The notes beneath the pieces were generated by a model, which was not told where the DNA came from, ran no database searches, and worked only from the letters and a program-made list of their open reading frames with translations. Both the position numbers and the translations under genes were made by a program. From a virus (taxonomy: Duplodnaviria > Caudoviricetes): 54,939 bases of DNA. Positions 1 through 39,374 of the stretch are shown in pieces (position 1 is the first letter of the stretch; every line of letters starts with the position of its first letter). The stretch is taken from the IMG/VR virus record IMGVR_UViG_3300045457_000127, positions 1 to 54,939 of that record. The stretch is one strand, 5' to 3'.

Positions 1-210
1 GATGTCAAGAAGGATCACATTGTTCACTGTAAGACAAAGAAGGTGATGGATGTTTCGCTGGTTAGCATTAATGGTGGTGAGTGTAACGCTCCTTCATTCC
101 ACTGGCATGGTGAAGGTAAGTTCGCCGTACCAGGAACAAAAGACTGCTCTTATGTTGGAGCAGTGACATTATCAGTTGACGGACATACAAAAACATTTGC
201 TCCGTTATGA
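1..210 (+). CDS. 3' end of a hypothetical protein (5'-truncated by the window)
   Basis: Frame 1 is open from base 1 (DVKKDHIVHCKTKK...TKTFAPL) to TGA at 208-210. Confidence 0.7.
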   Translation, partial: DVKKDHIVHCKTKKVMDVSLVSINGGECNAPSFHWHGEGKFAVPGTKDCSYVGAVTLSVDGHTKTFAPL

Positions 211-216
211 GTAAAG

Positions 217-342
217 TTCGCCTTCATCACGGTAACATCTGTCTTGGGTTGGTATCCAGATTAAAGATGCCGTATTGAGTTACGGTTCGAATAACCATTA
301 GTTGAAAGACTATAAAACAGGTGTTACTTTGATGAAGGCGAA
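217..342 (+). ncRNA. Unclassified structured RNA: long closing stem with a multi-branched head
   Basis: 217-229 TTCGCCTTCATCA pairs perfectly with 330-342, and 232-242 pairs with 317-327 (one G-U). Internal hairpins lie at 245-258, 269-286 and 299-312 (GAAA tetraloop). G-U pairs favour the + strand. It fills an intergenic gap. Confidence 0.65.
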
Positions 343-348
343 TAAATA
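341..348 (+). promoter_or_regulatory. T4-type late promoter (AATAAATA) upstream of the tmRNA acceptor piece
   Basis: Matches the NNTAAATA motif found before many late genes in this window, and lies just before the predicted tmRNA precursor start (~350). Confidence 0.55.
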
Positions 349-349
349 G

Positions 350-652
350 AATTGCCAAAGGTCGTTGAGAGGAACGGCATAGACGCTGAGGACGTGGGTG
401 CGACTCCCACCGCCTCCACCATAGATACATCACTATACTTTGAGGTCTTGGTCGTTACCAGCATAGCAAAAACGGCGACAGGAGTTAGGATGTATCTTTG
501 ATGGGGGCGAACTAGGATCGACTGGTGTAGTAAGGGTTCAAGGAGACCAAAGGCAAATATAGGTGCTAACGATAACGTTTCACCATTTGAGATGGCCCTA
601 GCGGCTTAATCTCATTGGGTTTGGTGGTTTTCCTAGAAACAGAAAAATCACC
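350..652 (+). ncRNA. ssrA: Circularly permuted (two-piece) tmRNA: acceptor piece ~350-421, intervening segment 422-502, coding piece 503-~652
   Basis: T-arm GTGGG-TGCGACT-CCCAC (394-410), then CGCCTCC-A-CCA (411-421). Downstream GGGGGCG (503-509) completes a 7-bp acceptor stem with the G3-U70 alanine identity pair, followed by AACTAGGATCGAC. The tag frame 565-609 reads ANDNVSPFEMALAA*. Inter-piece pairings: TTGCC(352-356)/GGCAA(552-556) and GGTC(360-363)/GACC(545-548). Confidence 0.95.
623..652 (+). terminator. 3' hairpin or terminator-like stem of the tmRNA coding piece
   Basis: GGTGGTTTT...AAAATCACC inverted repeat downstream of the tag stop; only a weak U-tail follows. Confidence 0.45.
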
Positions 653-682
653 TCTTCACACACAAACACACAGGAGTAAATC

Positions 683-934
683 ATGGATACATATAACGCA
701 CATTCACCCTTTACAATCCGGCTAGAACTGCTAAAATTAGCACAGTCAATTGAGAACGATAGGGTATGGGTGGAACGGAATAGACTAGAACAAGAATTTC
801 AAATGGTACGGGAACAGGCCGATAGAAAAGGTTGGGACACTATACCTGACTTTCCAGACTATCCAGTTGTCACCTATCAAGATGTTGTCCGAGTAGCCGA
901 GGAACTAAACAAATTCGTTTCTAACAAGGGTTGA
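683..934 (+). CDS. Small hypothetical phage protein (PFxIRLELLKLA motif)
   Basis: 83-aa ORF with an AGGAG RBS and a CA-rich leader. Confidence 0.85.
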   Translation: MDTYNAHSPFTIRLELLKLAQSIENDRVWVERNRLEQEFQMVREQADRKGWDTIPDFPDYPVVTYQDVVRVAEELNKFVSNKG

Positions 935-936
935 TA

Positions 937-1164
937 ATGATGACGCCGGATGATATTCAAAAGTTTAGTATGGAGATTGAGGAACTGGTCTATATGAAAG
1001 ACATTCCTTATATTGATGCCGTGATTGAATACTGTGAAGCAACTGGTTTTGAACTAGAAACCGCAGCGAAACTAATCTCCGGCGTCCTCAAATCCAAAAT
1101 CAAACTCGAAGCAGAAAACCTTCACTACCTCAAAAAGTCAAACACCTCACAACTTCCTCTATAA
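937..1164 (+). CDS. gp33: Late transcription coactivator gp33
   Basis: FSMEIEELV..YIDAVIEYCE..E.AAKLIS..LKSKIKLEA..L.YLK..S.LPL is the gp33 pattern. It lies upstream of gp59/gp32 as in T4. The ATG at 937 (or 940) is preferred over the TTG at 931. Confidence 0.9.
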   Translation: MMTPDDIQKFSMEIEELVYMKDIPYIDAVIEYCEATGFELETAAKLISGVLKSKIKLEAENLHYLKKSNTSQLPL

Positions 1165-1178
1165 GAAGGAACTACATT

Positions 1179-2024
1179 ATGGAAAACAAGGAAACTTTCT
1201 CCAAGAAGGAGATTGAAAACATCTATCGTATGAAAAACGAGATTGAAGACCTTATCAAGACCAAAGAACTATTCGAGTATTACATTGTCTCTACTCCAAC
1301 TGCCACTGACAAATTTACAAAGCACTCTTACAGAAATCATCCGTCATTTGTGATTGCTGGTGGTGTGTTTGCTTCTATCTTTCATAAAGAAAAGATTTTC
1401 GACATTGATGTGTTCATCTTGGGTGAACATCATATCATTTCTTCAGAAGATTGGATTACACCCAATTACGATCATTTTTCATCCTTGATTCGTTATAAGA
1501 ATGGTCGTTGGAATGTGCAATTTCGCCTTGACGAGGATGACAACTATCATAATCCTCATGTCTTTGGCACCGCTACACACAAGGAATCTGGCATTCAGTA
1601 TATTATGACCAATCATCTAACAAGACAGGAACTACTAAAGGACTTTGACTTTGTTCATTGCACTGTGTCATATCACGAGGGTAAACTAAACATCAATCGT
1701 GGTGCCTATGATGCTATTGCTAACAAGCATCTGGTTCCTCAGAACCGTAAGAAGAAGATCAAGCAATGGCGCCAGGATAAGTTTATCGGCCGTGGTTGGT
1801 GGGATGAGAATAATCCAATAGTAAATCAAACTGGTAGAACTCTAAAAGATATCATGGACGAAGTCCTTGATAAAAAAGGTGTAGATATTTTTGAAGATGC
1901 CTTGAAGCATCCTCCTGTGGTCAATCCCACTAATCTAAGCGACCGAACGTGGAAAATGTTGATAAATGATACTGACAAAATGAGTCATAAACAGGTGTGG
2001 ACAAATAGCACGAAAGTAATATGA
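1179..2024 (+). CDS. Putative pol-beta superfamily nucleotidyltransferase (CCA/poly(A) polymerase head-like)
   Basis: IAGG....IFH.EKIFDIDVF fits the GG-x(n)-DxD metal-binding motif. The downstream LLKDFDFVHC resembles the RRDFTxN position of class II enzymes. An AAGGA RBS is present. Confidence 0.6.
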   Translation: MENKETFSKKEIENIYRMKNEIEDLIKTKELFEYYIVSTPTATDKFTKHSYRNHPSFVIAGGVFASIFHKEKIFDIDVFILGEHHIISSEDWITPNYDHFSSLIRYKNGRWNVQFRLDEDDNYHNPHVFGTATHKESGIQYIMTNHLTRQELLKDFDFVHCTVSYHEGKLNINRGAYDAIANKHLVPQNRKKKIKQWRQDKFIGRGWWDENNPIVNQTGRTLKDIMDEVLDKKGVDIFEDALKHPPVVNPTNLSDRTWKMLINDTDKMSHKQVWTNSTKVI

Positions 2025-2734
2025 GATATAATCTAACTCCTTTTTATGACCTACTGGATGAATCTGTCCCTTCAAGAGATGTTTGGAGGGACAGATTCAA
2101 GGTGTTCTTTGATAACACCAATACAGACAAGGCTCTATTAGACCTTTATTATAATCTTCTGATAAACAATTATAATAATCTGTATCCTTTATTGGTATCG
2201 GGGTATCTGATAGACCCTTATTCAGGTTTATTTACCTTTGATGAACCTTCTATGAAAGGTCTTCACACATTCAATATGGCAAACTTTATAAGAAGAAACC
2301 ATGTCTTCTTTAATAAGAAGTCGCTTAAGACTATAAGCATGGATTTCGGACTAACGAACATACAAATTAAGCAGTGTGGCTTGAAACTGACCAATGTGTC
2401 GCTATCAGCACAATCCATACCTGGTTCTGCATTGTTGGTCATTGGCAACTATAGCCCACCGTATGACTTCAAAAATGATGGAGACCCTGATGTTATATTT
2501 GCCTGTCATGTATTCAATACAGAAGATGAAGCATGGGAAAACTGGAATATGTTGTTTGACCTTAGTATTCAAGGCAAAGATGTTTTCTTTACCAGTTCTA
2601 CATTTAAAGAGTTGAAAAAGTTTATAAACTATGATAGAATACAACAAATGGAAAACCCATCGGAAATATACGATGCGGATGTGTATTCAAATCTTGATAT
2701 GGGTTTTATGAACAGGATCTATAGAATAATCTAA
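2021..2734 (+). CDS. Hypothetical protein, possibly a degenerate class I (family 16-like) methyltransferase fold
   Basis: MANFIRRNHVFFNKKSL..SMDFGLTNIQIKQCG and DVIFACHVFN parallel the LAxxI..N..KxVLxLGxGxGL and DxIxxxDVxY motifs, but the Gly-rich loop is lost. ATGA overlap with the upstream gene. Confidence 0.35.
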   Translation: MRYNLTPFYDLLDESVPSRDVWRDRFKVFFDNTNTDKALLDLYYNLLINNYNNLYPLLVSGYLIDPYSGLFTFDEPSMKGLHTFNMANFIRRNHVFFNKKSLKTISMDFGLTNIQIKQCGLKLTNVSLSAQSIPGSALLVIGNYSPPYDFKNDGDPDVIFACHVFNTEDEAWENWNMLFDLSIQGKDVFFTSSTFKELKKFINYDRIQQMENPSEIYDADVYSNLDMGFMNRIYRII

Positions 2735-3369
2735 TGAAACACTTTTCTGGATATGGTGCATATCAGTTGTTTCTGGCCTTACGAACACACTTCATAAGTC
2801 CAAAGTATGACTTCTTTGAAATGCATGGTAAACTCCGTGCAACAAAGGAGTCATACAACAAAAGAAACGACCGATTGTTTCTTGAGAAGTTGGCGAAGAC
2901 ATATGATCCTGAAACTCTTAGGGATTTCTATATCGCCAACATTCTTGAGGACAAACAATATGTGACAGACTTGCTTGATGATAGTGCTGCGGCTAATCTT
3001 GTAAAGTATCAGGCTCGCCGGCAGGCATTATCATACAATGTGTCCAATGATGTTGATATGGTGTTGCGTAATGGGTCATGTGAGGCGTTCAGAACGTATC
3101 CCAATCAATATCCCGAAGTGCTTGTTCTATATCTACAACGCCGTATTAGTATTGAGACCATGGTGATCATGAATGACTTTATTCTGTTTAGACAAAAGTT
3201 TGATAAATACTATGACGGTGATGTGATATGGCCTAAGGTATCTCTAAAGATGATAAAGTATAGGCCCTTTTTAAAGTATGATAGAGAGAAGATGAAACTC
3301 ATACTCAAGGAGCGTATAGATGAAAACTCTAGAGGGCAATGCGTCGGACATACTGAAGCAATGGATTGA
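2734..3369 (+). CDS. gp59: Helicase loader gp59
   Basis: AYQLFLALRTHF..KYDFF..GK..SYNKRNDR.F.EKLAK, ISIETMVI and WPKVSLKMIKYRPFL; position between gp33 and gp32. Confidence 0.92.
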   Translation: MKHFSGYGAYQLFLALRTHFISPKYDFFEMHGKLRATKESYNKRNDRLFLEKLAKTYDPETLRDFYIANILEDKQYVTDLLDDSAAANLVKYQARRQALSYNVSNDVDMVLRNGSCEAFRTYPNQYPEVLVLYLQRRISIETMVIMNDFILFRQKFDKYYDGDVIWPKVSLKMIKYRPFLKYDREKMKLILKERIDENSRGQCVGHTEAMD

Positions 3370-3502
3370 CGGGAGGTATGAGGTTTTTTACAAATACGAT
3401 GGTGACAGAGTTACAAATATAGAAATCTATGAAAGAGAAACAGACCTAAGTTTTACACCAAATGAAGAGACTGAACATTTTTTGGAGATAATACTTGGAT
3501 AA
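3320..3502 (+). CDS. Small acidic hypothetical protein
   Basis: 60-aa ORF with an AAGGAG RBS; overlaps the end of gp59. Confidence 0.6.
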   Translation: MKTLEGNASDILKQWIDGRYEVFYKYDGDRVTNIEIYERETDLSFTPNEETEHFLEIILG

Positions 3503-3818
3503 AGAAAAAAGACAGAAGCGGTTTCAACAGAAGCAACGGCACATCGAGCGCCAGTTTTCTATCCGAAAGACTAATAACTTCGTATGGGGTTATAAAGACA
3601 ACATGGAAAACAAAGAAGAACAAAAGCATCGCTTTCACAAGATGAAGGGATGGACTTGCCATTCTGGTTGTTATCTATGTGGCAACCCCAGAACATATTG
3701 GGGTGCTAAGACATTACAAGAAACAAAGTTTGAATGTTCCGCAGTTGAACAAACAAACAGAGATTCCATTGGCAAATGGGAATGGGAGGATCTAACTGAT
3801 CCTTCCATGGAGTGGTGA
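3495..3818 (+). CDS. Small basic protein with a C-x3-C-x2-C-GNPR putative zinc motif
   Basis: TTG start with a GGAG RBS, a K/R/Q-rich N-terminus and CHSGCYLCGNPR. Confidence 0.7.
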   Translation: MDKEKRQKRFQQKQRHIERQFSIRKTNNFVWGYKDNMENKEEQKHRFHKMKGWTCHSGCYLCGNPRTYWGAKTLQETKFECSAVEQTNRDSIGKWEWEDLTDPSMEW

Positions 3819-3825
3819 CTAAATA
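3818..3825 (+). promoter_or_regulatory. Late promoter (ACTAAATA) for gene 32
   Basis: NNTAAATA motif in the intergenic region before gp32. Confidence 0.55.
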
Positions 3826-3829
3826 TCAC

Positions 3830-3858
3830 TTGACAGAGGGAGATTCCTCTGTTATAAT
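3830..3858 (+). promoter_or_regulatory. Consensus sigma70 (early) promoter for gene 32
   Basis: TTGACA (3830-3835), a 17-bp spacer and TATAAT (3853-3858). Confidence 0.9.
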
Positions 3859-3920
3859 ATCAACTTATACTATGATGATGTGGACAAGAAACTATACAAC
3901 GAACATACAAGGAAAATACA

Positions 3921-4886
3921 ATGAACTTTTCAAATCTAAAGAAGCAATCCTCAAAGTTTGACAACCTACTCAAGGAAGTCGATAAACTACAGAACCCCAC
4001 CTACGAGAAGGACGATAGCACAGATAACTATTGGAAGCCAACACCAGATAAGACTGGTAATGCTCTAGCAGTTATTCGCTTTCTTCCTGGCCCAGCAGTT
4101 GATGGTGACGATGCTCTGCCATTCGTTCGCTATTTCGACCATGGTTTCCAGAACAAGGTGACAGGTAAGTGGTACATCGAAAAGTCTCTAACGACTTTTG
4201 ATGAAAAGGATCCTGTTTCTGAATACAACTCACAACTCTGGAACTCAACACAGGATGATAACTCTCCAGAGCGTAAGCAGGCCCGTGACCAGAAGCGCCG
4301 TCTGCATTATGTCTCCAACATCTATGTGGTGAGTGATCCTAAGAACCCAGAGAACGAGGGCAAGGTCTTCTTGTTCAAGTATGGCAAGAAGATTTTCGAC
4401 AAGATCACCAAGATGATGAACCCTGACCTTGAGTCAGAGCCACGTATCAATCCTTTTGATTTGTGGAAGGGTGCCAACTTCAAGTTGAAGATGACACGTC
4501 AGAACGTCAATATGGGTGGTCGTAACATTTCATTCCCTAACTATGATGAGTCGGTGTTTCTAACGGCCGGTCCATTGAATGAGAATGATGATGAACTAGA
4601 GTCAATCTGGAAGGGCGAGTATTCATTAAAGGACATTATTGATCGTAAGAACTTTAAGTCCTATGATGAATTGAAGCGCCGTTTGAATGATGTTATGGGT
4701 CTATCTGGTACACCTGTTCGTTCTACTACGGATGAATATCGTGCTGCTGCACCTAAGGCATTCAATGAAACTGACGAGGATGTTCCTTTTACAGACTCAA
4801 AGCCTGCTAAGAGGGCACCTGCTCCTGTTGTAGATGAGGATGAAGATCCTGATCTTGCAGAGTTCCGTCATCTACTAGACGACTAA
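3921..4886 (+). CDS. gp32: Single-stranded DNA-binding protein gp32
   Basis: WKPTPDKTGN..AVIRFLP, WYIEKSLTT, YVSNIYVVSDPKNPENEGKVFLFKYGKKIFDKI, PFDLWKGANFKLK and an acidic C-terminal tail. Confidence 0.98.
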   Translation: MNFSNLKKQSSKFDNLLKEVDKLQNPTYEKDDSTDNYWKPTPDKTGNALAVIRFLPGPAVDGDDALPFVRYFDHGFQNKVTGKWYIEKSLTTFDEKDPVSEYNSQLWNSTQDDNSPERKQARDQKRRLHYVSNIYVVSDPKNPENEGKVFLFKYGKKIFDKITKMMNPDLESEPRINPFDLWKGANFKLKMTRQNVNMGGRNISFPNYDESVFLTAGPLNENDDELESIWKGEYSLKDIIDRKNFKSYDELKRRLNDVMGLSGTPVRSTTDEYRAAAPKAFNETDEDVPFTDSKPAKRAPAPVVDEDEDPDLAEFRHLLDD

Positions 4887-8463: not shown

Positions 8464-8684
8464 CTTCGTTTAGCCTGCCTCTGCATTTGTGCCATCTGAG
8501 ACTTTCTCTCTTGTTCTAATAGCTTTATTCTTTCTTCTTCTGCTGCCAAATATTCTTTCAAAAGATCAACATATACATATCTTTCCCATGGTATCATACC
8601 TTCAACTTCTGTTAAACTCCAGTGATGATGTTCCATGAGACCAAAGTTTGTTTTATAATAATTTCCAAGTTTGTCATGACCCAT
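8460..8684 (-). CDS. gp51: Baseplate hub assembly protein, gp51-like (short form)
   Basis: NYYKTNFGLMEHHHWSLTEVEGMIPWERYVYV is the short gp51 motif of T4-like phages. Confidence 0.88.
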   Translation of the reverse strand: MGHDKLGNYYKTNFGLMEHHHWSLTEVEGMIPWERYVYVDLLKEYLAAEEERIKLLEQERKSQMAQMQRQAKRR

Positions 8685-33701: not shown

Positions 33702-36700
33702 ATGGCCATAGCAAATGTCACGCTTAACAACACGTTCGAACAGTGGAGAGGTGTAACTAATCAGTTAGTTGTTGCCGTCAATGAGTTTGAATCAAACGCA
33801 AACTTGATGAGGTTTACGTCAAACACTAGTTCGTTGAACATTTCTTCAAATGTTAGTCGTGGAGCTATGGTGTATATCACACCAAACCTTTCTGATGACA
33901 TTAGCAATAATGGTTTAACAATTATTCCTTCAATGTCCGTATTGAATGCAACAATGAATCTTGTTGTTGCAAACTTTAATGTAGCAAATGCTGCTTATAA
34001 CAATGCTAATGTAGGACTATTTTCTGCAAACAACTATTCCGGATTCATGGCAAATAGTGGCAACGCTTGGGCCAATTCGGTAGGTATATCAGGGAATGCT
34101 TATGCTAACTTTGTAGGAGTTGCCGGTAATGCCTATGCACTAACTATTGATACCGCATCTAATACTGCGGCATATGGCAATATTAGAGTTTCAACTACAT
34201 CTGCTAATGACTACGCATTAAGTATAGATACTGCATCCAATACTGCGGCATATGGTAATATCAGGGTCTCCACCGTAGCATCTAACACCTATACCGATGT
34301 AGTATTGGATGCCGCTAATGCTGCCATCCAAGGTAACATTAGAGTATCGACCGTAGCATCTAACACCTATACCGATGTAGTATTGGATGCCGCTAATGCT
34401 GCCATCCAAGGTAACATTAGAGTATCGACCGTAGCATCTAACACCTATACAGATGTTGCTAATGCTGCTATCCAAGGTAACATTAGGGTATCCACTACTG
34501 CGGCCAATACTTATGCTTTGAGTATAGATACTGCATCCAATACTGCGGCATATGGTAATATCAGGGTCTCCACTGTAGCAGCCAATGCTTATACAGATGT
34601 GGCCAATACTGCCGCATATGCTAACATTAGAGTATCAACCGTAGCATCAAACACCTATACCGATGTAGTATTGGCTGCCGCTAATGCTGCTATCCAAGGT
34701 AACATTAGGGTATCCACTACAGCAGCAAATGTTTATACAGATGTGGCCAATACTGCGGCATATGGTAATATCAGGGTCTCCACCGTAGCATCAAACACCT
34801 ATACCGATGTCGCTAATGCTGCCATCCAAGGTAACATTAGGGTATCCACCGTAGCATCTAACACTTATACCGATGTCGCTAATGCTGCCATCCAAGGTAA
34901 CATTAGGGTATCTACCGTAGCATCTAACACCTATACTGACGTAGTGTTGACTGCTGCTAACACAGCAATTCAAGGTAACATTAGGGTATCCACCGTAGCA
35001 TCTAACACTTATACCGATGTCGCTAATGCTGCCATCCAAGGTAACATTAGGGTATCTACCGTAGCATCCAACACCTATGCATTAAGTATTGATACTGCAT
35101 CTAATACTGCGGCATATGGTAATATCAGGGTCTCCACTGTAGCGTCCAATACATATACTGATACGGCAAATGTTGCCATCCAAGGTAACATTAGAGTTTC
35201 CACTACTGCGGCCAATACATACACCGATGTTGCTAATGCTGCCATTCAAGGTAACATTAGAGTATCCACCGTAGCGTCCAATACATACACCGATGTTGCT
35301 AATGCTGCTATCCAAGGTAACATTAGAGTTTCAACTGTTGCATCTAACACCTATACTGACGTAGTGTTGACTGCTGCTAACACAGCAATTCAAGGTAACA
35401 TTAGGGTATCCACCGTAGCATCAAATGCCTATGCATTGAGCATTGACACAGCATCTAATACTGCTGCATATGGTAATATTTTAGTATCAACCATTGCTGC
35501 TAATAACTATGCAGGATTAATGGCAAATGCTGCTAATCAAAGAGCATCTACCGCTCAAACTAAGGCTGATGATGCTTATAATCTAGCAGTAACTCTGAGT
35601 GGAGATACAGGAGATATTGCAGCACTTAACCAAGTTGTATTTAATACCGCTAATGCAGCATATAATAATGCTAATGTAGGACTAGTTTCTGCTAATAATT
35701 ATGCCGGCGCAATGGCAAATTCTGCAAATGCTTATGCTTTGACTATTGATACTGCATCTAACACCGCTGCCTATGGTAATATCAGGGTGTCTACCACAGC
35801 AGCAAATGCTTATACAGATGTGGCCAATACTGCGGCATATGGTAATATCAGGGTGTCTACCACGGCAGCTAATACATATGCTCTAACTATTGATACTGCA
35901 TCCAACACTGCGGCATATGCAAATATATTGGCATCTACCATTGCTGCTAATGCTTATGCATTGTCCATAGATACGGCATCCAACACGGCAGCATATGCTA
36001 ACATTAGAACATCTACTACAGCAGCTAATACATATGCTCTAACTATTGATACTGCATCCAACACTGCGGCATATGCAAATATTCAAGCAACTGGTGCCGC
36101 AGCAAATGCTTATGCTTTGACTATTGATACTTCATCTAACACCGCTGCCTATGCCAACATTAGGGTGTCTACCACAGCAGCTAATGCCTATACAGATGTG
36201 GCCAATACTGCTGCCTATGGTAATATCAGGGTCTCCACTGTAGCAGCCAATGCCTATACAGATGTGGCTAACACCGCTGCCTATGGTAATATCAGGGTGT
36301 CTACCACGGCAGCTAATGCCTATACAGATGTGGCTAACACCGCTGCCTATGCCAACATTAGGGTATCCACTACAGCAGCAAATGTTTATACAGATGTGGC
36401 CAATACTGCTGCCTATGGTAATATCAGGGTGTCTACCACCGCAGCTAATACATATGCTCTAACTATTGATACTGCATCTAATGTTGCTGCTTATGGTAAC
36501 ATACTATTATCTACCACATCTGCTAATAATTATGCAGGAGCTATGGCCAACTCAGGTAATGCTTATGCTAATGTTGTAGGTATATCAGGTAATAACTGGG
36601 TATTAGCAACTTTTGTAAGACTATCGTCTGCAACTCAGCAGTCCATATCAAGTGATATTGCTATTTCCGGTAACTTGACGGTAACAGGTAATACAACTTA

Positions 36701-39374
36701 CGTTAATACACAGACTATGTTGGTTGGTGATAATATCATCACACTAAACAATGACATTCCTATTACAGTAGCACCCACAGAAGATGCTGGTATTGAAGTT
36801 AAAAGAGGTAATGCTTCAAACGTATCTTTGATTTGGAATGAAACTGTTGATAGATGGAGATTTACTAATGATGGTACCAATTTCAATAATTTAATTACTC
36901 AAACTGAATTGGATGCTAAGGTTGCGTCGGTAACCGGTACAGCAGGAAGAATATCTTCCACAGGAGGTACCACTCCTGTAGTTGACTTAATTACCACAGG
37001 TGTTACAGCATCAATATACGGCGGTGCCAATCAGATTCCTGTTATAACAGTAGATACATTTGGTAGATTAACATCGGTTGCGAATGTGACTGTTCAAGGT
37101 ATGGACTATCCATATGTTAACGTATCCACAGCAGCAGCCAATAATTATGCCGGTGCGATGGCCAATTCTGCAAATGCTTATGCTTTGACTATTGATACTA
37201 CATCCAACACCGCTGCTTACGGTAATATCAGAGTTTCCACTACTGCGGCCAATACATACACCGATGTTGCTAATGCTGCCATTCAAGGTAACATTAGAGT
37301 TTCCACTACAGCAGCTAATACATATGCTTTGACTATTGATACTGCATCCAACACTGCGGCATATGCTAACATACAAGCAACTGGTTTGGCCGCTAATGCT
37401 TATGCTTTGAGTATTGTTACCGCAGCCAATACTGCCGCTTATGGAAATATATTAGCATCTACCGTTGCTTCCAATGCTTATGCACTGAGCATTGTTACCG
37501 CATCCAATACTGCTGCTTACGGTAACATTAGAGTTTCTACCACGGCCGCTAATGCTTATACCGATGCAGCCAATGCTGCCATCCAAGGTAACATTAGAGT
37601 TTCTACCACAGCAGCAAATGCTTATACAGATGTGGCCAATACTGCTGCCTATGGTAATATCAGGGTGTCTACCACGGCAGCTAATACATATACTGACGTA
37701 GTATTGGCTGCTGCTAACACAGCAATACAAGGTAACATTAGAGTTTCTACCACGGCTGCTAATACTTATACTGATGTTGCTAACACAGCAATTCAAGGTA
37801 ACATTAGAGTATCTACCACGGCTGCTAATACATATGCTCTAACTATTGATACTGCATCCAACACTGCTGCTTATGCCAATATTCAAGCAACTGGTTTGGC
37901 TGCTAATGCCTATGCATTAAGTATTGATACTGCATCCAATACCGCTGCTTACGGTAACATTAGAGTTTCCACTACAGCAGCCAATACATATGCTTTGACT
38001 ATTGATACTGCATCCAACACTGCTGCTTATGCAAATATACTGGTATCTACGGTTGCTTCCAATGCCTATGCTCTCAGCATTGTTACCGCAGCCAATACTG
38101 CTGCTTATGCAAATATATTGGCATCTACCATTGCTGCTAATAATTATGCAGGATTCATGGCAAATGCTTCTAATGTTAGAGCAGATTCCAAGGTTGCATC
38201 CGTAACTGGTACATCGGGAAGAATAAGTTCATCCGGTGGTCTTAATCCATCTATAGACTTAATCACAGCAGGTGCCGGCGCAGCTACCTATTCATCTGGT
38301 ATTTCTGCTATTACAGTCGATGCTTATGGTCGTGTCACATCTGTAACTGGATCAGCAGGATATCAACCTGGTACTGTTACATCTGTCGCCAACGGTGCAG
38401 GTCTTACTGGCGGAACAATTACTACAACTGGTACATTTGCTGTTCAGGCCAACTCCGGTATTGTTGCCAATACGAATGGTGTCTTCCTTGCTACAGGTGG
38501 CGCTGGCGCAGCGACATACGGATCAACCGGTGTAGCATCTCTAACACTTGATGCATTTGGTAGAGTTTCTAGTGTTGCAACGCCTGCGGCCGCTTACTTG
38601 AATACTGCATCATATGTCGCATTCTCAGCATTTACAGGTGCGGTTACAGGTACGCAATTTACAGATGTAAATAATACTGCATATTATGTAGATCCATCTT
38701 CTACATCAGTGGTAGTGAGAATTAATTCTAATTATCTATATTCATTCAATGGTAATGATACAGCAGCAGAATTTTCAGGTGCCAGCACCGGAAAGTTTGG
38801 TGCGGTTCAACAACTTAGAACTGATACCAATGGTTCAGGAACACAAAATGGTCCTAGACAATGGTATCAGAAGCAAGGTGCAAAGTCATGGTCTATTGGT
38901 GTCGAGTCTTCAACAAATAATGGATGGGGTATTTGGGAAGACGGTACAGACGCTGCTACAGGAACACTAAGATTCCTCGTAGCCGTAGGTGGTGCTATCA
39001 CTGCATATGGTAACTTCAATGTAAATTCCAGTCTGACTGCCGGTTCAGCATCTCAGGTAATAAATGGATTCTCGGTGTCATCATATAATATTGGTACAGT
39101 TTCTTCAGGAACAACCACACCAAGTCCTTTCTTGGGTAACTATCAATACTATACCAATGGTGGAGCACATACACTTGCAGCACCTACTCAAAACTGTGCC
39201 ATAGATATACTTGTTATAAATTCGGCTACAGCAGGTGCTATTACTTTCAGTGGATTTACTGTTCAGACAGGCGGTACTGGTGATGTGTATGCCACAACCA
39301 ATGGTAATAGATACTTACTGATGATTAGAAGAATCAATTCAATTTCAACTTATATTTGGAAGGCTCTACAGTAA
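33702..39374 (+). CDS. Long tail fibre-like protein with a 22/26-aa coiled-coil repeat stalk (1890 aa)
   Basis: N-terminal NTFEQWR..TN attachment motif, roughly 40 repeats of NTAAYGNIRVSTxAANxY(TDV/ALxID), and VDxYGRVTS fibre motifs near the C-terminus. Confidence 0.8.
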   Translation: MAIANVTLNNTFEQWRGVTNQLVVAVNEFESNANLMRFTSNTSSLNISSNVSRGAMVYITPNLSDDISNNGLTIIPSMSVLNATMNLVVANFNVANAAYNNANVGLFSANNYSGFMANSGNAWANSVGISGNAYANFVGVAGNAYALTIDTASNTAAYGNIRVSTTSANDYALSIDTASNTAAYGNIRVSTVASNTYTDVVLDAANAAIQGNIRVSTVASNTYTDVVLDAANAAIQGNIRVSTVASNTYTDVANAAIQGNIRVSTTAANTYALSIDTASNTAAYGNIRVSTVAANAYTDVANTAAYANIRVSTVASNTYTDVVLAAANAAIQGNIRVSTTAANVYTDVANTAAYGNIRVSTVASNTYTDVANAAIQGNIRVSTVASNTYTDVANAAIQGNIRVSTVASNTYTDVVLTAANTAIQGNIRVSTVASNTYTDVANAAIQGNIRVSTVASNTYALSIDTASNTAAYGNIRVSTVASNTYTDTANVAIQGNIRVSTTAANTYTDVANAAIQGNIRVSTVASNTYTDVANAAIQGNIRVSTVASNTYTDVVLTAANTAIQGNIRVSTVASNAYALSIDTASNTAAYGNILVSTIAANNYAGLMANAANQRASTAQTKADDAYNLAVTLSGDTGDIAALNQVVFNTANAAYNNANVGLVSANNYAGAMANSANAYALTIDTASNTAAYGNIRVSTTAANAYTDVANTAAYGNIRVSTTAANTYALTIDTASNTAAYANILASTIAANAYALSIDTASNTAAYANIRTSTTAANTYALTIDTASNTAAYANIQATGAAANAYALTIDTSSNTAAYANIRVSTTAANAYTDVANTAAYGNIRVSTVAANAYTDVANTAAYGNIRVSTTAANAYTDVANTAAYANIRVSTTAANVYTDVANTAAYGNIRVSTTAANTYALTIDTASNVAAYGNILLSTTSANNYAGAMANSGNAYANVVGISGNNWVLATFVRLSSATQQSISSDIAISGNLTVTGNTTYVNTQTMLVGDNIITLNNDIPITVAPTEDAGIEVKRGNASNVSLIWNETVDRWRFTNDGTNFNNLITQTELDAKVASVTGTAGRISSTGGTTPVVDLITTGVTASIYGGANQIPVITVDTFGRLTSVANVTVQGMDYPYVNVSTAAANNYAGAMANSANAYALTIDTTSNTAAYGNIRVSTTAANTYTDVANAAIQGNIRVSTTAANTYALTIDTASNTAAYANIQATGLAANAYALSIVTAANTAAYGNILASTVASNAYALSIVTASNTAAYGNIRVSTTAANAYTDAANAAIQGNIRVSTTAANAYTDVANTAAYGNIRVSTTAANTYTDVVLAAANTAIQGNIRVSTTAANTYTDVANTAIQGNIRVSTTAANTYALTIDTASNTAAYANIQATGLAANAYALSIDTASNTAAYGNIRVSTTAANTYALTIDTASNTAAYANILVSTVASNAYALSIVTAANTAAYANILASTIAANNYAGFMANASNVRADSKVASVTGTSGRISSSGGLNPSIDLITAGAGAATYSSGISAITVDAYGRVTSVTGSAGYQPGTVTSVANGAGLTGGTITTTGTFAVQANSGIVANTNGVFLATGGAGAATYGSTGVASLTLDAFGRVSSVATPAAAYLNTASYVAFSAFTGAVTGTQFTDVNNTAYYVDPSSTSVVVRINSNYLYSFNGNDTAAEFSGASTGKFGAVQQLRTDTNGSGTQNGPRQWYQKQGAKSWSIGVESSTNNGWGIWEDGTDAATGTLRFLVAVGGAITAYGNFNVNSSLTAGSASQVINGFSVSSYNIGTVSSGTTTPSPFLGNYQYYTNGGAHTLAAPTQNCAIDILVINSATAGAITFSGFTVQTGGTGDVYATTNGNRYLLMIRRINSISTYIWKALQ
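34130..38150 (+). repeat. Three blocks of tandem 66/78-nt coding repeats
   Basis: Blocks at ~34130-35520, ~35720-36540 and ~37170-38150, with recurring GGTAACATTAG(A/G)GT and GGTAATATCAGGGT. Confidence 0.92.

Follow-up and report, generated by a model that had tools for sequence, protein, structure and literature searches.

A leader element upstream of a phage permuted tmRNA gene resembles a copy of the gene's own intervening sequence

Permuted genes for transfer-messenger RNA (tmRNA), which specify a molecule in two pieces with an intervening sequence (IVS) between them, are a known system (Rfam RF04321 and RF01849; PMC11915505, PMC3978253). Their transcripts are described as being cut by tRNA-processing enzymes, and a tRNA gene and a repetitive element are each known from inside single IVSs (PMC11915505). 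Permuted genes of this kind have been proposed to originate through duplication in tandem and subsequent loss of their outer parts (PMC3978253). The locus considered here lies in the IMG/VR virus record IMGVR_UViG_3300045457_000127 (Duplodnaviria; Caudoviricetes). The whole of this viral contig, 54,939 bp or an estimated ~33% of a genome, is referred to as the window, and database negatives on coding content cover this ~33% of the genome unless complete relatives are named. Directly upstream of its permuted tmRNA gene, the window carries a structured element of 126 nt (217–342). Sequence comparison marks this element as a variant of the tmRNA IVS and not as an independent RNA family. The explanation favoured here, with moderate confidence, is that the element is a pseudo-IVS: a relic of tandem duplication at this locus that persists in the leader as a closed RNA hairpin acting in cis.

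Searches of the literature on two-piece or permuted tmRNA, phage and pelagimyophage turned up no description of leader copies of the tmRNA spacer. In the part that deals with the locus, the paper on OM43 phage Melnitz (PMC9004378) describes the locus itself and no leader IVS copies, and its supplementary tables may list related tmRNA genes. The additions made here are the mimicry of the acceptor strands, the cassette arrays, the empty sites and a formal model test.

The termini of the element repeat the junctions of the tmRNA gene. The 5′ terminus reads CGCCTTC-ATCA-CGG-TAACATC, against CGCCTCC-ACCA-TAG-ATACATC in the tmRNA, and the 3′ terminus reads GGTGTTAC-TTTGATG-AAGGCGAA, against GATGTATC-TTTGATG-GGGGCGAA. 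The element is therefore built like an IVS, with an acceptor 3′ strand, a CCA position, a trailer/leader helix, a head, UGAU and an acceptor 5′ strand. The IVSs of permuted tmRNA genes have a 7-bp acceptor pairing, an N73/N-1 pair, pairing of the CCA with the leader and then about ten covarying leader/trailer pairs. All of these are present in the element, which also agrees with true IVSs in architecture, strand and locus, and in matching a model of them over its full length.

This covariance model, R1, was trained on 58 distinct true IVSs, recognised by the D-loop analogue of the tRNA-like domain that comes after their 5′ strand; the set excludes IVSs with GTAACA rods as well as the single IVS whose head is homologous to that of the element. 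Among the 58 aligned sequences, 99.4% of stalk cells are paired, and both sides change in 12 of the 20 pairs. The covariation score is 0.446, against 0.130 for shuffled alignments (0/500 shuffles reach the observed value), and when the stalk registers are slid by 1–3 columns, only 37–53% of cells are paired. Applied to the 55-kb window at E≤10, R1 gave four matches, all at two places, the true IVS and the element. The element (219–340) scores 37.8 bits on the + strand (E 5.9e-8) and 29.0 bits on the − strand, and the match covers model positions 1–87, with all 20 model pairs formed and no non-standard pair. The true IVS (411–509) scores 60.2 bits on the + strand and 38.9 bits on the − strand, a match that is expected because an identical IVS, from the related locus L076, is in the training set. 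Across 40 loci that carry the same small gene upstream, true IVSs score 57–70 bits, except in L262 (44.4 bits), and the stalk-bounded cassettes of the leader score 25–45 bits. All matches in these loci fall between the upstream gene and the tmRNA, and the + strand scores higher wherever both strands are listed.

The element also departs from a true IVS. A true IVS lies between the T-arm and the coding piece, whereas the element is flanked by a stop codon and a promoter-like box: upstream is the stop of the 54-aa gene, and downstream is AATAAATAGAATTGCC, followed by the start of the acceptor piece. There is no T-arm before 219 and no D-loop analogue AACTAGGATCGAC after 340. The element has AUCA (226–229) instead of ACCA, lacks the C74.A mismatch and carries A3-U70 (A336-U223) where the tmRNA acceptor has G3.U70, the acceptor-stem pair of alanine identity. 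Unlike the true IVS, it is dispensable and variable in copy number. A first-pass annotation of the window, made from the sequence alone, had stated that the element was not part of tmRNA; in the evolutionary sense this does not hold, since the stalk is a paralog of the helix of the tmRNA gene's own IVS.

Folding of 217–342 gives −53.1 kcal/mol on the + strand (z −8.36, with 0/200 dinucleotide shuffles as stable) and −44.3 kcal/mol on the − strand (z −8.01). Because the two z scores are near each other, most of the fold signal comes from the long inverted repeat; the advantage of the + strand amounts to 8.8 kcal/mol, in agreement with the strand assigned at first pass. The stalk totals 25 bp. 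Its outer helix has 12 perfect pairs (218–229/330–341), with T217 and A342 as a possible thirteenth, and its inner helix has 12 pairs (231–242/317–328), including G231.U328 and U238.G321; C230 and T329 are unpaired between the two. In relatives, U238 and U328 are replaced by C, making G-C pairs. The first-pass annotation had described this 126-nt fold as a 25-bp rod with three hairpins, a GAAA loop and the words TGGT and ACCA, and reading and folding recovered every one of these parts. The observation is real: a structured element is selected on the + strand, which is that of the tmRNA.

The element had been left unclassified, and no Rfam family matches it: nothing reaches a gathering threshold over 217–342, and a scan of 150–720 at E≤10 touches the element with noise only (mir-9437 at 15.8 bits, IS605-orfB-I at 13.3 bits and CRISPR-DR33 at 15.5 bits). 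It was also said to be neither a terminator nor a tRNA. Terminator-like sites, G+C-rich hairpins followed by a U run, are absent from the + strand of 1–1300, where the stalk is followed by AATAAATAG, and 217–342 holds no promoter-like (sigma-70-like) or terminator-like site on the + strand. ARAGORN calls no tRNA in the window, only the tmRNA. A tRNA or permuted-tRNA reading was tried, and no cloverleaf was found, nor a T-arm or D-arm in the flanks; the permuted reading was rejected because no tRNA halves flank the element. The 3′ arm was also tried with the acceptor piece as a one-piece tRNA-like domain, in which GAAGGCG and CGCCTCC form 6/7 pairs with one A.C mismatch. This was rejected as the main fold because the arm's own partner is perfect and nearer.

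Relatives were gathered by a coding-piece 20-mer and a T-arm 26-mer (13 loci), and then by the upstream 54-aa gene, which occurs at 40 viral loci with 74–100% amino acid identity. Of these loci, 38 reach the acceptor piece and the other two end too early. In L118, L050, L006 and L242, the upstream gene stands directly before the tmRNA (...CCGTTATAA running into ATAGAATTGCC...), while the 126-nt element lies between gene and tmRNA in the window, L107, L238, L243, L245 and others. No cassette is present at 17 loci, nine with a gap of 12–13 nt and eight with a gap of 42 nt that includes a promoter-like stretch. The remaining 21 loci hold one cassette (13 loci), two (six loci, among them L076 and L241), three (one locus, L077) or six (one locus). 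A dedicated noncoding RNA, as inferred at first pass, is not borne out by this pattern: 17 of 38 relatives lack the element, it is found nowhere but at the tmRNA locus, and its stalk copies the IVS helix.

Backbones that are 95–99% identical differ in the presence of cassettes and in head type. L264 is 98–99% identical to the window in the upstream gene, the element, both tmRNA pieces and gp33, and its IVS head is unrelated; L268 is 95–99% identical in the flanks and has no element. IVS heads vary in the same way. The head of the window's own IVS (TTTGAGGTCTTGGTCGTTACCAGCAT.GCAAAAACGGCGACA, 425–502) recurs in L120 and L004 despite tmRNAs that are only 71–81% identical to that of the window, and L107 is 90% identical over the whole tmRNA locus, yet has a different IVS head. 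The true-IVS head of L273 is the head of the first leader cassette in L275. In L246/L272, the tmRNA lies ~1 kb beyond the cassettes.

This mosaicism raises the question of whether the element acts at the level of DNA, as a boundary or recombination signal for cassette shuffling, in the manner of a miniature inverted-repeat mobile element or of the promoter–stem-loop (PeSL) cassettes known from T4-type phages. Heads and whole cassettes do move between true-IVS and leader positions (as seen in L273 and L275), some cassettes enclose small open reading frames (ORFs) or an HNH-like ORF, and the L284-type cassette lies between direct repeats, TAAGTAGAATTG and TAAATAGAATTG. PeSL cassettes likewise are short stem-loop modules that recur within a variable region of T4-like genomes, and recombination among them is documented to account for the insertions, deletions and replacements by which near-identical phages differ (Arbiol et al. 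2010, PMC2839356). However, a PeSL consists of a strong sigma-70-like promoter and a terminator hairpin and is dispersed through hyperplastic regions (PMC2839356); the element has neither feature, descends from a gene for a stable RNA and occurs at the tmRNA locus only. No further stalk copy exists in the 55-kb window. In a 158,790-bp, 96%-complete relative that carries the element, the + strand stalk matches number exactly two, both at the tmRNA locus, and in a 100%-complete relative with an empty site, the true IVS is the only stalk match. A two-arm stalk pattern matched 18 viral and 9 metagenome stretches, with 0 matches in one genome each of 185,579 prokaryote species. A dispersed palindromic repeat of the REP/MITE kind was rejected, as neither the window nor the 96%-complete relative has matches beyond the element and the tmRNA IVS. 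In addition, the G.U pairs and energies favour one strand, which is not required of DNA palindromes, and the window shows neither a clean target-site duplication nor a sigma-70-like promoter inside the element. A DNA-level signal is accordingly regarded as very unlikely.

A further alternative is that the element is a neutral, recent leftover of unequal recombination, with arms that are complementary only through youth. Presence and absence among 95–99% identical backbones, the restriction to one locus and the imperfect acceptor-like stems of some arrays (5/7 pairs in L077 E1, L246 E2 and E4, and L241 Eb) would fit such an origin. The changes between arms speak against it. The acceptor-like stems of the cassette types are CGCCTTC/GAAGGCG, CGGATTC/GAATCCG, CGCCACC/GGTGGCG, CGTCTTC/GGAGACG and CGTCTCC/GGAGACG, and they differ through compensated double changes, among them transversions in CGGATTC/GAATCCG (G4-C69 to U-A and G5-C68 to C-G). 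Across 21 distinct leader cassettes, every cell at stalk positions 13–22 is paired (100%), and a single position can show as many as five pair types. Position 9 (C74) forms a C.A mismatch in 85/87 true IVSs and a U-A pair in 18/21 leader cassettes; through this change of C74 to U, AUCA/UGAU is fully paired in 18/21 pseudo-cassettes, against 2/87 true IVSs. Of 18 distinct leader cassettes, 17 fold more stably on the + strand (mean difference 6.4 kcal/mol), as do 70 of 85 true IVSs. Copies of the window type have five variable sites. Three lie in stems (238, 303 and 328), all changing U.G to C-G, and the other two are a change of GAAA to GUAA, which keeps the GNRA loop, and the unpaired C230; in addition, one base is inserted in the hairpin-1 loop. 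Since the copies come from close relatives and the contigs cannot count as independent samples, this pattern is suggestive and not strong. A neutral leftover seems unlikely on this evidence. The spacer stalk appears as a portable module, in which pairing is kept even without service to the tmRNA.

The favoured explanation, a pseudo-IVS left by duplication, is consistent with intermediates in related loci. L105 (minus strand) and L058 hold a full extra unit, in which an acceptor piece and an IVS are followed by the coding piece's first 24 bases, and this unit runs directly into a second acceptor piece; in L105, two matches to the coding-piece 20-mer lie 172 nt apart. ARAGORN reports one tmRNA only in each of these loci. 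Fused junctions of the form GGNGN-CG-CCTYC-AYCA, in which CG is the overlap of a 5′ strand with the next 3′ strand, occur in L076, L241, L246/L272, L275 and L288, and L077 has GGGG-CGG-ATTC-ATCA, with a 3-base overlap, CGG. Spaced junctions keep ATAAATAGAAYTG, the stretch that precedes the acceptor piece. We infer that a unit of promoter-like box, acceptor piece, IVS and first bases of the coding piece was duplicated in tandem, that the duplicated tRNA-like parts were later lost and that heads were exchanged by recombination inside the conserved stalk. The direct repeats around the L284-type cassette would allow clean cassette loss, and the stripped arrays are what repeated duplication and loss would be expected to leave. 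Junctions and intermediates follow the same path as that proposed for the origin of permuted tmRNA genes (PMC3978253). Intermediates of that origin are rarely seen. Here, the process appears to be still running in one phage lineage, which shows complete extra units, spacer-only units, arrays of up to six cassettes and empty sites in genomes that are otherwise 95–99% alike.

As to why the pairing would be kept, the leftover acceptor strands may be prevented from mispairing with the real tmRNA strands by pairing with each other in the 25-bp helix: CGCCTTC pairs 7/7 with tmRNA GGGGGCG, and GAAGGCG pairs 6/7 with CGCCTCC. Transcripts begun at the upstream early promoter and read through on the + strand would bring the hairpin into the tmRNA precursor. 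There, the helix may form a stable 3′ hairpin, or a site where double-strand cleavage parts the tmRNA precursor from the upstream mRNA. The enzymes of the host would treat the element as they treat the true IVS, and its length would suit a double-strand-specific host nuclease. In phage T7, cleavage of the RNase III hairpins between early genes leaves a protective 3′ hairpin and frees the downstream RNA. The element would likewise be a stable helix of >20 bp in a polycistronic early transcript, where cleavage is a proposal, but it has no sequence relationship with the T7 hairpins, and searches of the window and of three 96–100% complete relatives turned up no phage RNase III gene. Late transcripts may skip the element altogether and start just before the acceptor piece, given that empty-site relatives have a late-promoter word there. 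The usual spacing between the late-promoter word and the start site underlies this proposal.

Several points weigh against the pseudo-IVS explanation or limit it. The lack of a phage RNase III gene extends to SmpB in the same sequences, so that any processing would be by host enzymes. The reason offered for kept pairing, avoidance of mispairing, is conjectural. One 151-nt contig from an RNA library spans 263–414 and counts in favour of the explanation, but it possibly represents contaminating DNA, and contigs cannot show ends; the sequencing runs were compared as contigs, and depth gaps over 53–260 in four runs are not evidence of absence. The left flank of the window, TGAGTAAAG, keeps at most a degenerate trace of the L284-type direct repeat, so that at this site insertion by recombination may have occurred in place of duplication followed by deletion. 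Counts such as 17/18 overstate the number of events, because the relatives are metagenomic contigs from related populations and not independent samples, and 6/18 pseudo-cassettes are window-type variants. Lastly, the conservation of the head, and the two motifs common to the true-IVS head of L244 and another cassette type, also fit a job of its own for the head.

The head could then be a small RNA, with the stalk serving as a handle for host tRNA-processing or double-strand nucleases. It is 97–100% conserved in the window and in eight contigs with a full-length window-type copy, with only structure-neutral changes (three from U.G to C-G, and GAAA to GUAA); in hairpin 3, these are U303 to C (U.G to C-G) and A305 to U. 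Heads homologous to it occur in L244/L253, within the true IVS, and in more diverged form in L077 E1 and L246 E2. The homology of the L244 and L077 E1 heads is based on MAFFT alignment and shared motifs, and blastn of the head against all cassettes gives window-type copies only. Two motifs, YTGGYAT and AATAACCAT (YUGGYAU and AAUAACCAU), occur together in 9/108 distinct cassettes of three head types, while the loop motif occurs alone in 1/108 and the second motif alone in 0/108. This co-occurrence is best read as conservation of homologous heads, not as covariation. Hairpin 2 is invariant among window-type copies and unalignable in other head types. Against a small RNA, no cassette at all is present in 17/38 relatives, other cassettes hold unrelated heads or even small ORFs, the head shows no covariation, and the five variable sites of the window-type copies represent too little divergence for a test of structure. 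This possibility is considered doubtful, though it carries some weight.

Two finer features of the head had also been proposed at first pass. For the pseudoknot between TGGT and ACCA, three diverged head types retain the sequence of both partners, but the two do not covary, and one type has an uncompensated GGC loop (L077 E1). The T-loop-like word GGTTCGAAT is present at 284–292, but is not kept in homologous heads (GGTTACAAAT in L244 and CCCACTTAAT in L077 E1). Neither the T-loop reading nor a loose likeness to bacterial Y RNAs is supported. Y RNAs of the YrlA type have a long terminal stem and a multi-hairpin, tRNA-like head. The element likewise has a long terminal stem and a multi-hairpin head, but its stem mimics the acceptor/leader helix of the tmRNA and not a Ro-binding helix. 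No Y-RNA model in Rfam matched, even at E≤10, although which Y-RNA models Rfam holds was not checked, and no TROVE/Ro gene (PF05731) is present in the window or in the 96%-complete carrier G001, although the host may encode a Ro protein.

A broader version of the small-RNA idea would make the stalk a general expression slot, an acceptor-like handle that releases arbitrary small RNAs from the tmRNA precursor or leader, the window head among them. The YUGGYAU loop would then be an NCCA-binding site, masked in cis by AAUAACCAU, and during infection it could bind, in trans, tmRNA or tRNA at an uncharged 3′ end. Precedents for NCCA binding are the discriminator bulge of the T-box and the L15 loop of RNase P. 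Taken together, these proposals form the least probable of the readings considered here.

Table 1. Coordinates of the element, the tmRNA gene and neighbouring features in the window.
Feature	Positions	Strand	Basis or remark
Small conserved upstream gene	46–210	+	54 aa, stop TGA 208–210
Whole pseudo-IVS element, stalk and three-hairpin head	217–342	+	Fold; R1 match 219–340
Acceptor-stem 3′-strand mimic CGCCTTC (219–225) and AUCA (226–229) in place of ACCA	219–229	+	Compared with tmRNA CGCCTCC-ACCA, 411–421
Rod 5′ arm GGTAACATCTGT	231–242	+	Pairs with 317–328, two G.U pairs
Head hairpin 1, 244–249/254–259, loop motif UUGGUAU (UGGU 250–253)	244–259	+	Fold
Head hairpin 2, 266–267 and 269–274/281–288, core GCCGTA/TACGGT	266–288	+	Fold
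Single-stranded conserved AAUAACCAU, ACCA 294–297, candidate pseudoknot partner of hairpin-1 loop	290–298	+	Head alignment, motif search
Head hairpin 3, 299–303/308–312, GNRA loop GAAA 304–307	299–312	+	Fold
Rod 3′ arm ACAGGTGTTACT	317–328	+	Fold, pair table
UGAU (330–333) and acceptor-stem 5′-strand mimic GAAGGCG (334–340)	330–340	+	Compared with tmRNA TGAT-GGGGGCG, 499–509
Promoter-like box AATAAATA	341–348	+	One base off T4-type late-promoter word
tmRNA acceptor piece: T-arm, CGCCTCC 411–417, ACCA 418–421	360–421	+	RF04321 (tmRNA_permuted)
True tmRNA IVS: rod, head, rod, TGAT	422–502	+	Rfam alignment; R1 match 411–509
tmRNA coding piece, starts GGGGGCGAACTAGGATCGAC	503–653	+	ARAGORN, Rfam

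The adjacent gene is called as a circularly permuted tmRNA by RF04321 (360–609, 92.8 bits), by the alpha_tmRNA model RF01849 (298–653, 88.1 bits) and by ARAGORN (329–700), which gives the tag ANDNVSPFEMALAA; read directly, the coding piece starts with GGGGGCGAAC at 503. As these calls place the start differently, at 360, 298 and 329, the 3′ arm of the element overlaps the loose 5′ flanks of two of the three calls, and not the tRNA-like domain. Since tmRNA finders can start the gene inside the element, such hairpins should be checked before they are reported as new RNA genes or as mature tmRNA.

The window comes from a T4-like phage, with late-transcription coactivator, gp59 and gp32 families at 931–4886. 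Its order, tmRNA followed by coactivator, is that given for OM43 phage Melnitz and pelagimyophages (PMC9004378). The small upstream gene is listed as an ORF from GTG 43, with an ATG at 46 read from the sequence, and in relatives without the element its stop is the TAA inside TATAAATAG. No Pfam family matched this gene. Neither window positions 1–3000 (blastn, distant mode) nor the upstream ORF (tblastn) had a match in a phage genome collection. In relatives, a putative sigma-70-like promoter (TTGACA, 17 nt, TAATAT) can be read ahead of the gene. The box at 341–348 reads TATAAATA in empty-site relatives, where it contains the late-promoter word and is a candidate promoter; TATAAAT is given as the T4-like late-promoter word (PMC9004378, methods).

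Several minor observations concern the IVSs and cassettes of relatives. Between the two IVSs of L105 and L058 lies an apparent one-piece tRNA-like domain without a tag-coding part; a tmRNA of phage DS6A that lacks a coding sequence is reported to inhibit host tmRNA (PMC11915505). In L273, L274 and L276, which share one true IVS sequence type, a genuine acceptor piece is followed by ATCA and not ACCA, so that the CCA of the tmRNA 3′ end would need post-transcriptional addition. An IVS of ~500 nt in L293 (2777–3244) and L297 (2826–3257) holds an ORF of 144–156 aa with an HNH-like N-terminus, scoring 20.6 and 18.0 bits against Pfam HNH, below the 21.4 cut-off. Small ORFs of 45–68 aa, with no Pfam family, lie in or between stalk-bounded cassettes (L275, 2995–3198; L288, 1698–1874; L272, 3151–3330 and 3486–3623), and one of them starts the true IVS in L275 and a leader cassette in L272. 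T-arm-like hairpins, such as ACGGTTCAATTCCGT and AAGGTTCAAATCCTT, are frequent in IVS heads (true IVSs of L240 and L243; L130, L107 and L265; a leader cassette of L273), and a strict T-arm-like pattern is met by 5/108 distinct cassettes.

Other observations concern tRNA-like sequences and repeats away from the leader. About 3 kb from its tmRNA, L068 has a second stalk-bounded cassette (minus strand, 8537–8648), CAGCTCC-ACCA...GGGGCTG, followed by AACTAGGATCGAC, which suggests a second permuted tRNA-like or tmRNA-like gene; ARAGORN reports one tmRNA and five tRNAs in this locus. An ARAGORN tRNA-Arg(TCT) abuts or overlaps the 3′ end of the tmRNA call in L128, L006 and L120, and tRNA-like sequence is visible by eye at the same place in L280, L282 and L272. 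Within the window, a crude stalk scan found three copies of TGGTAAT-ATCA-GGGTGTCTACCAC at 36284–37782, ~130–1240 nt apart, which are probably an intragenic repeat.

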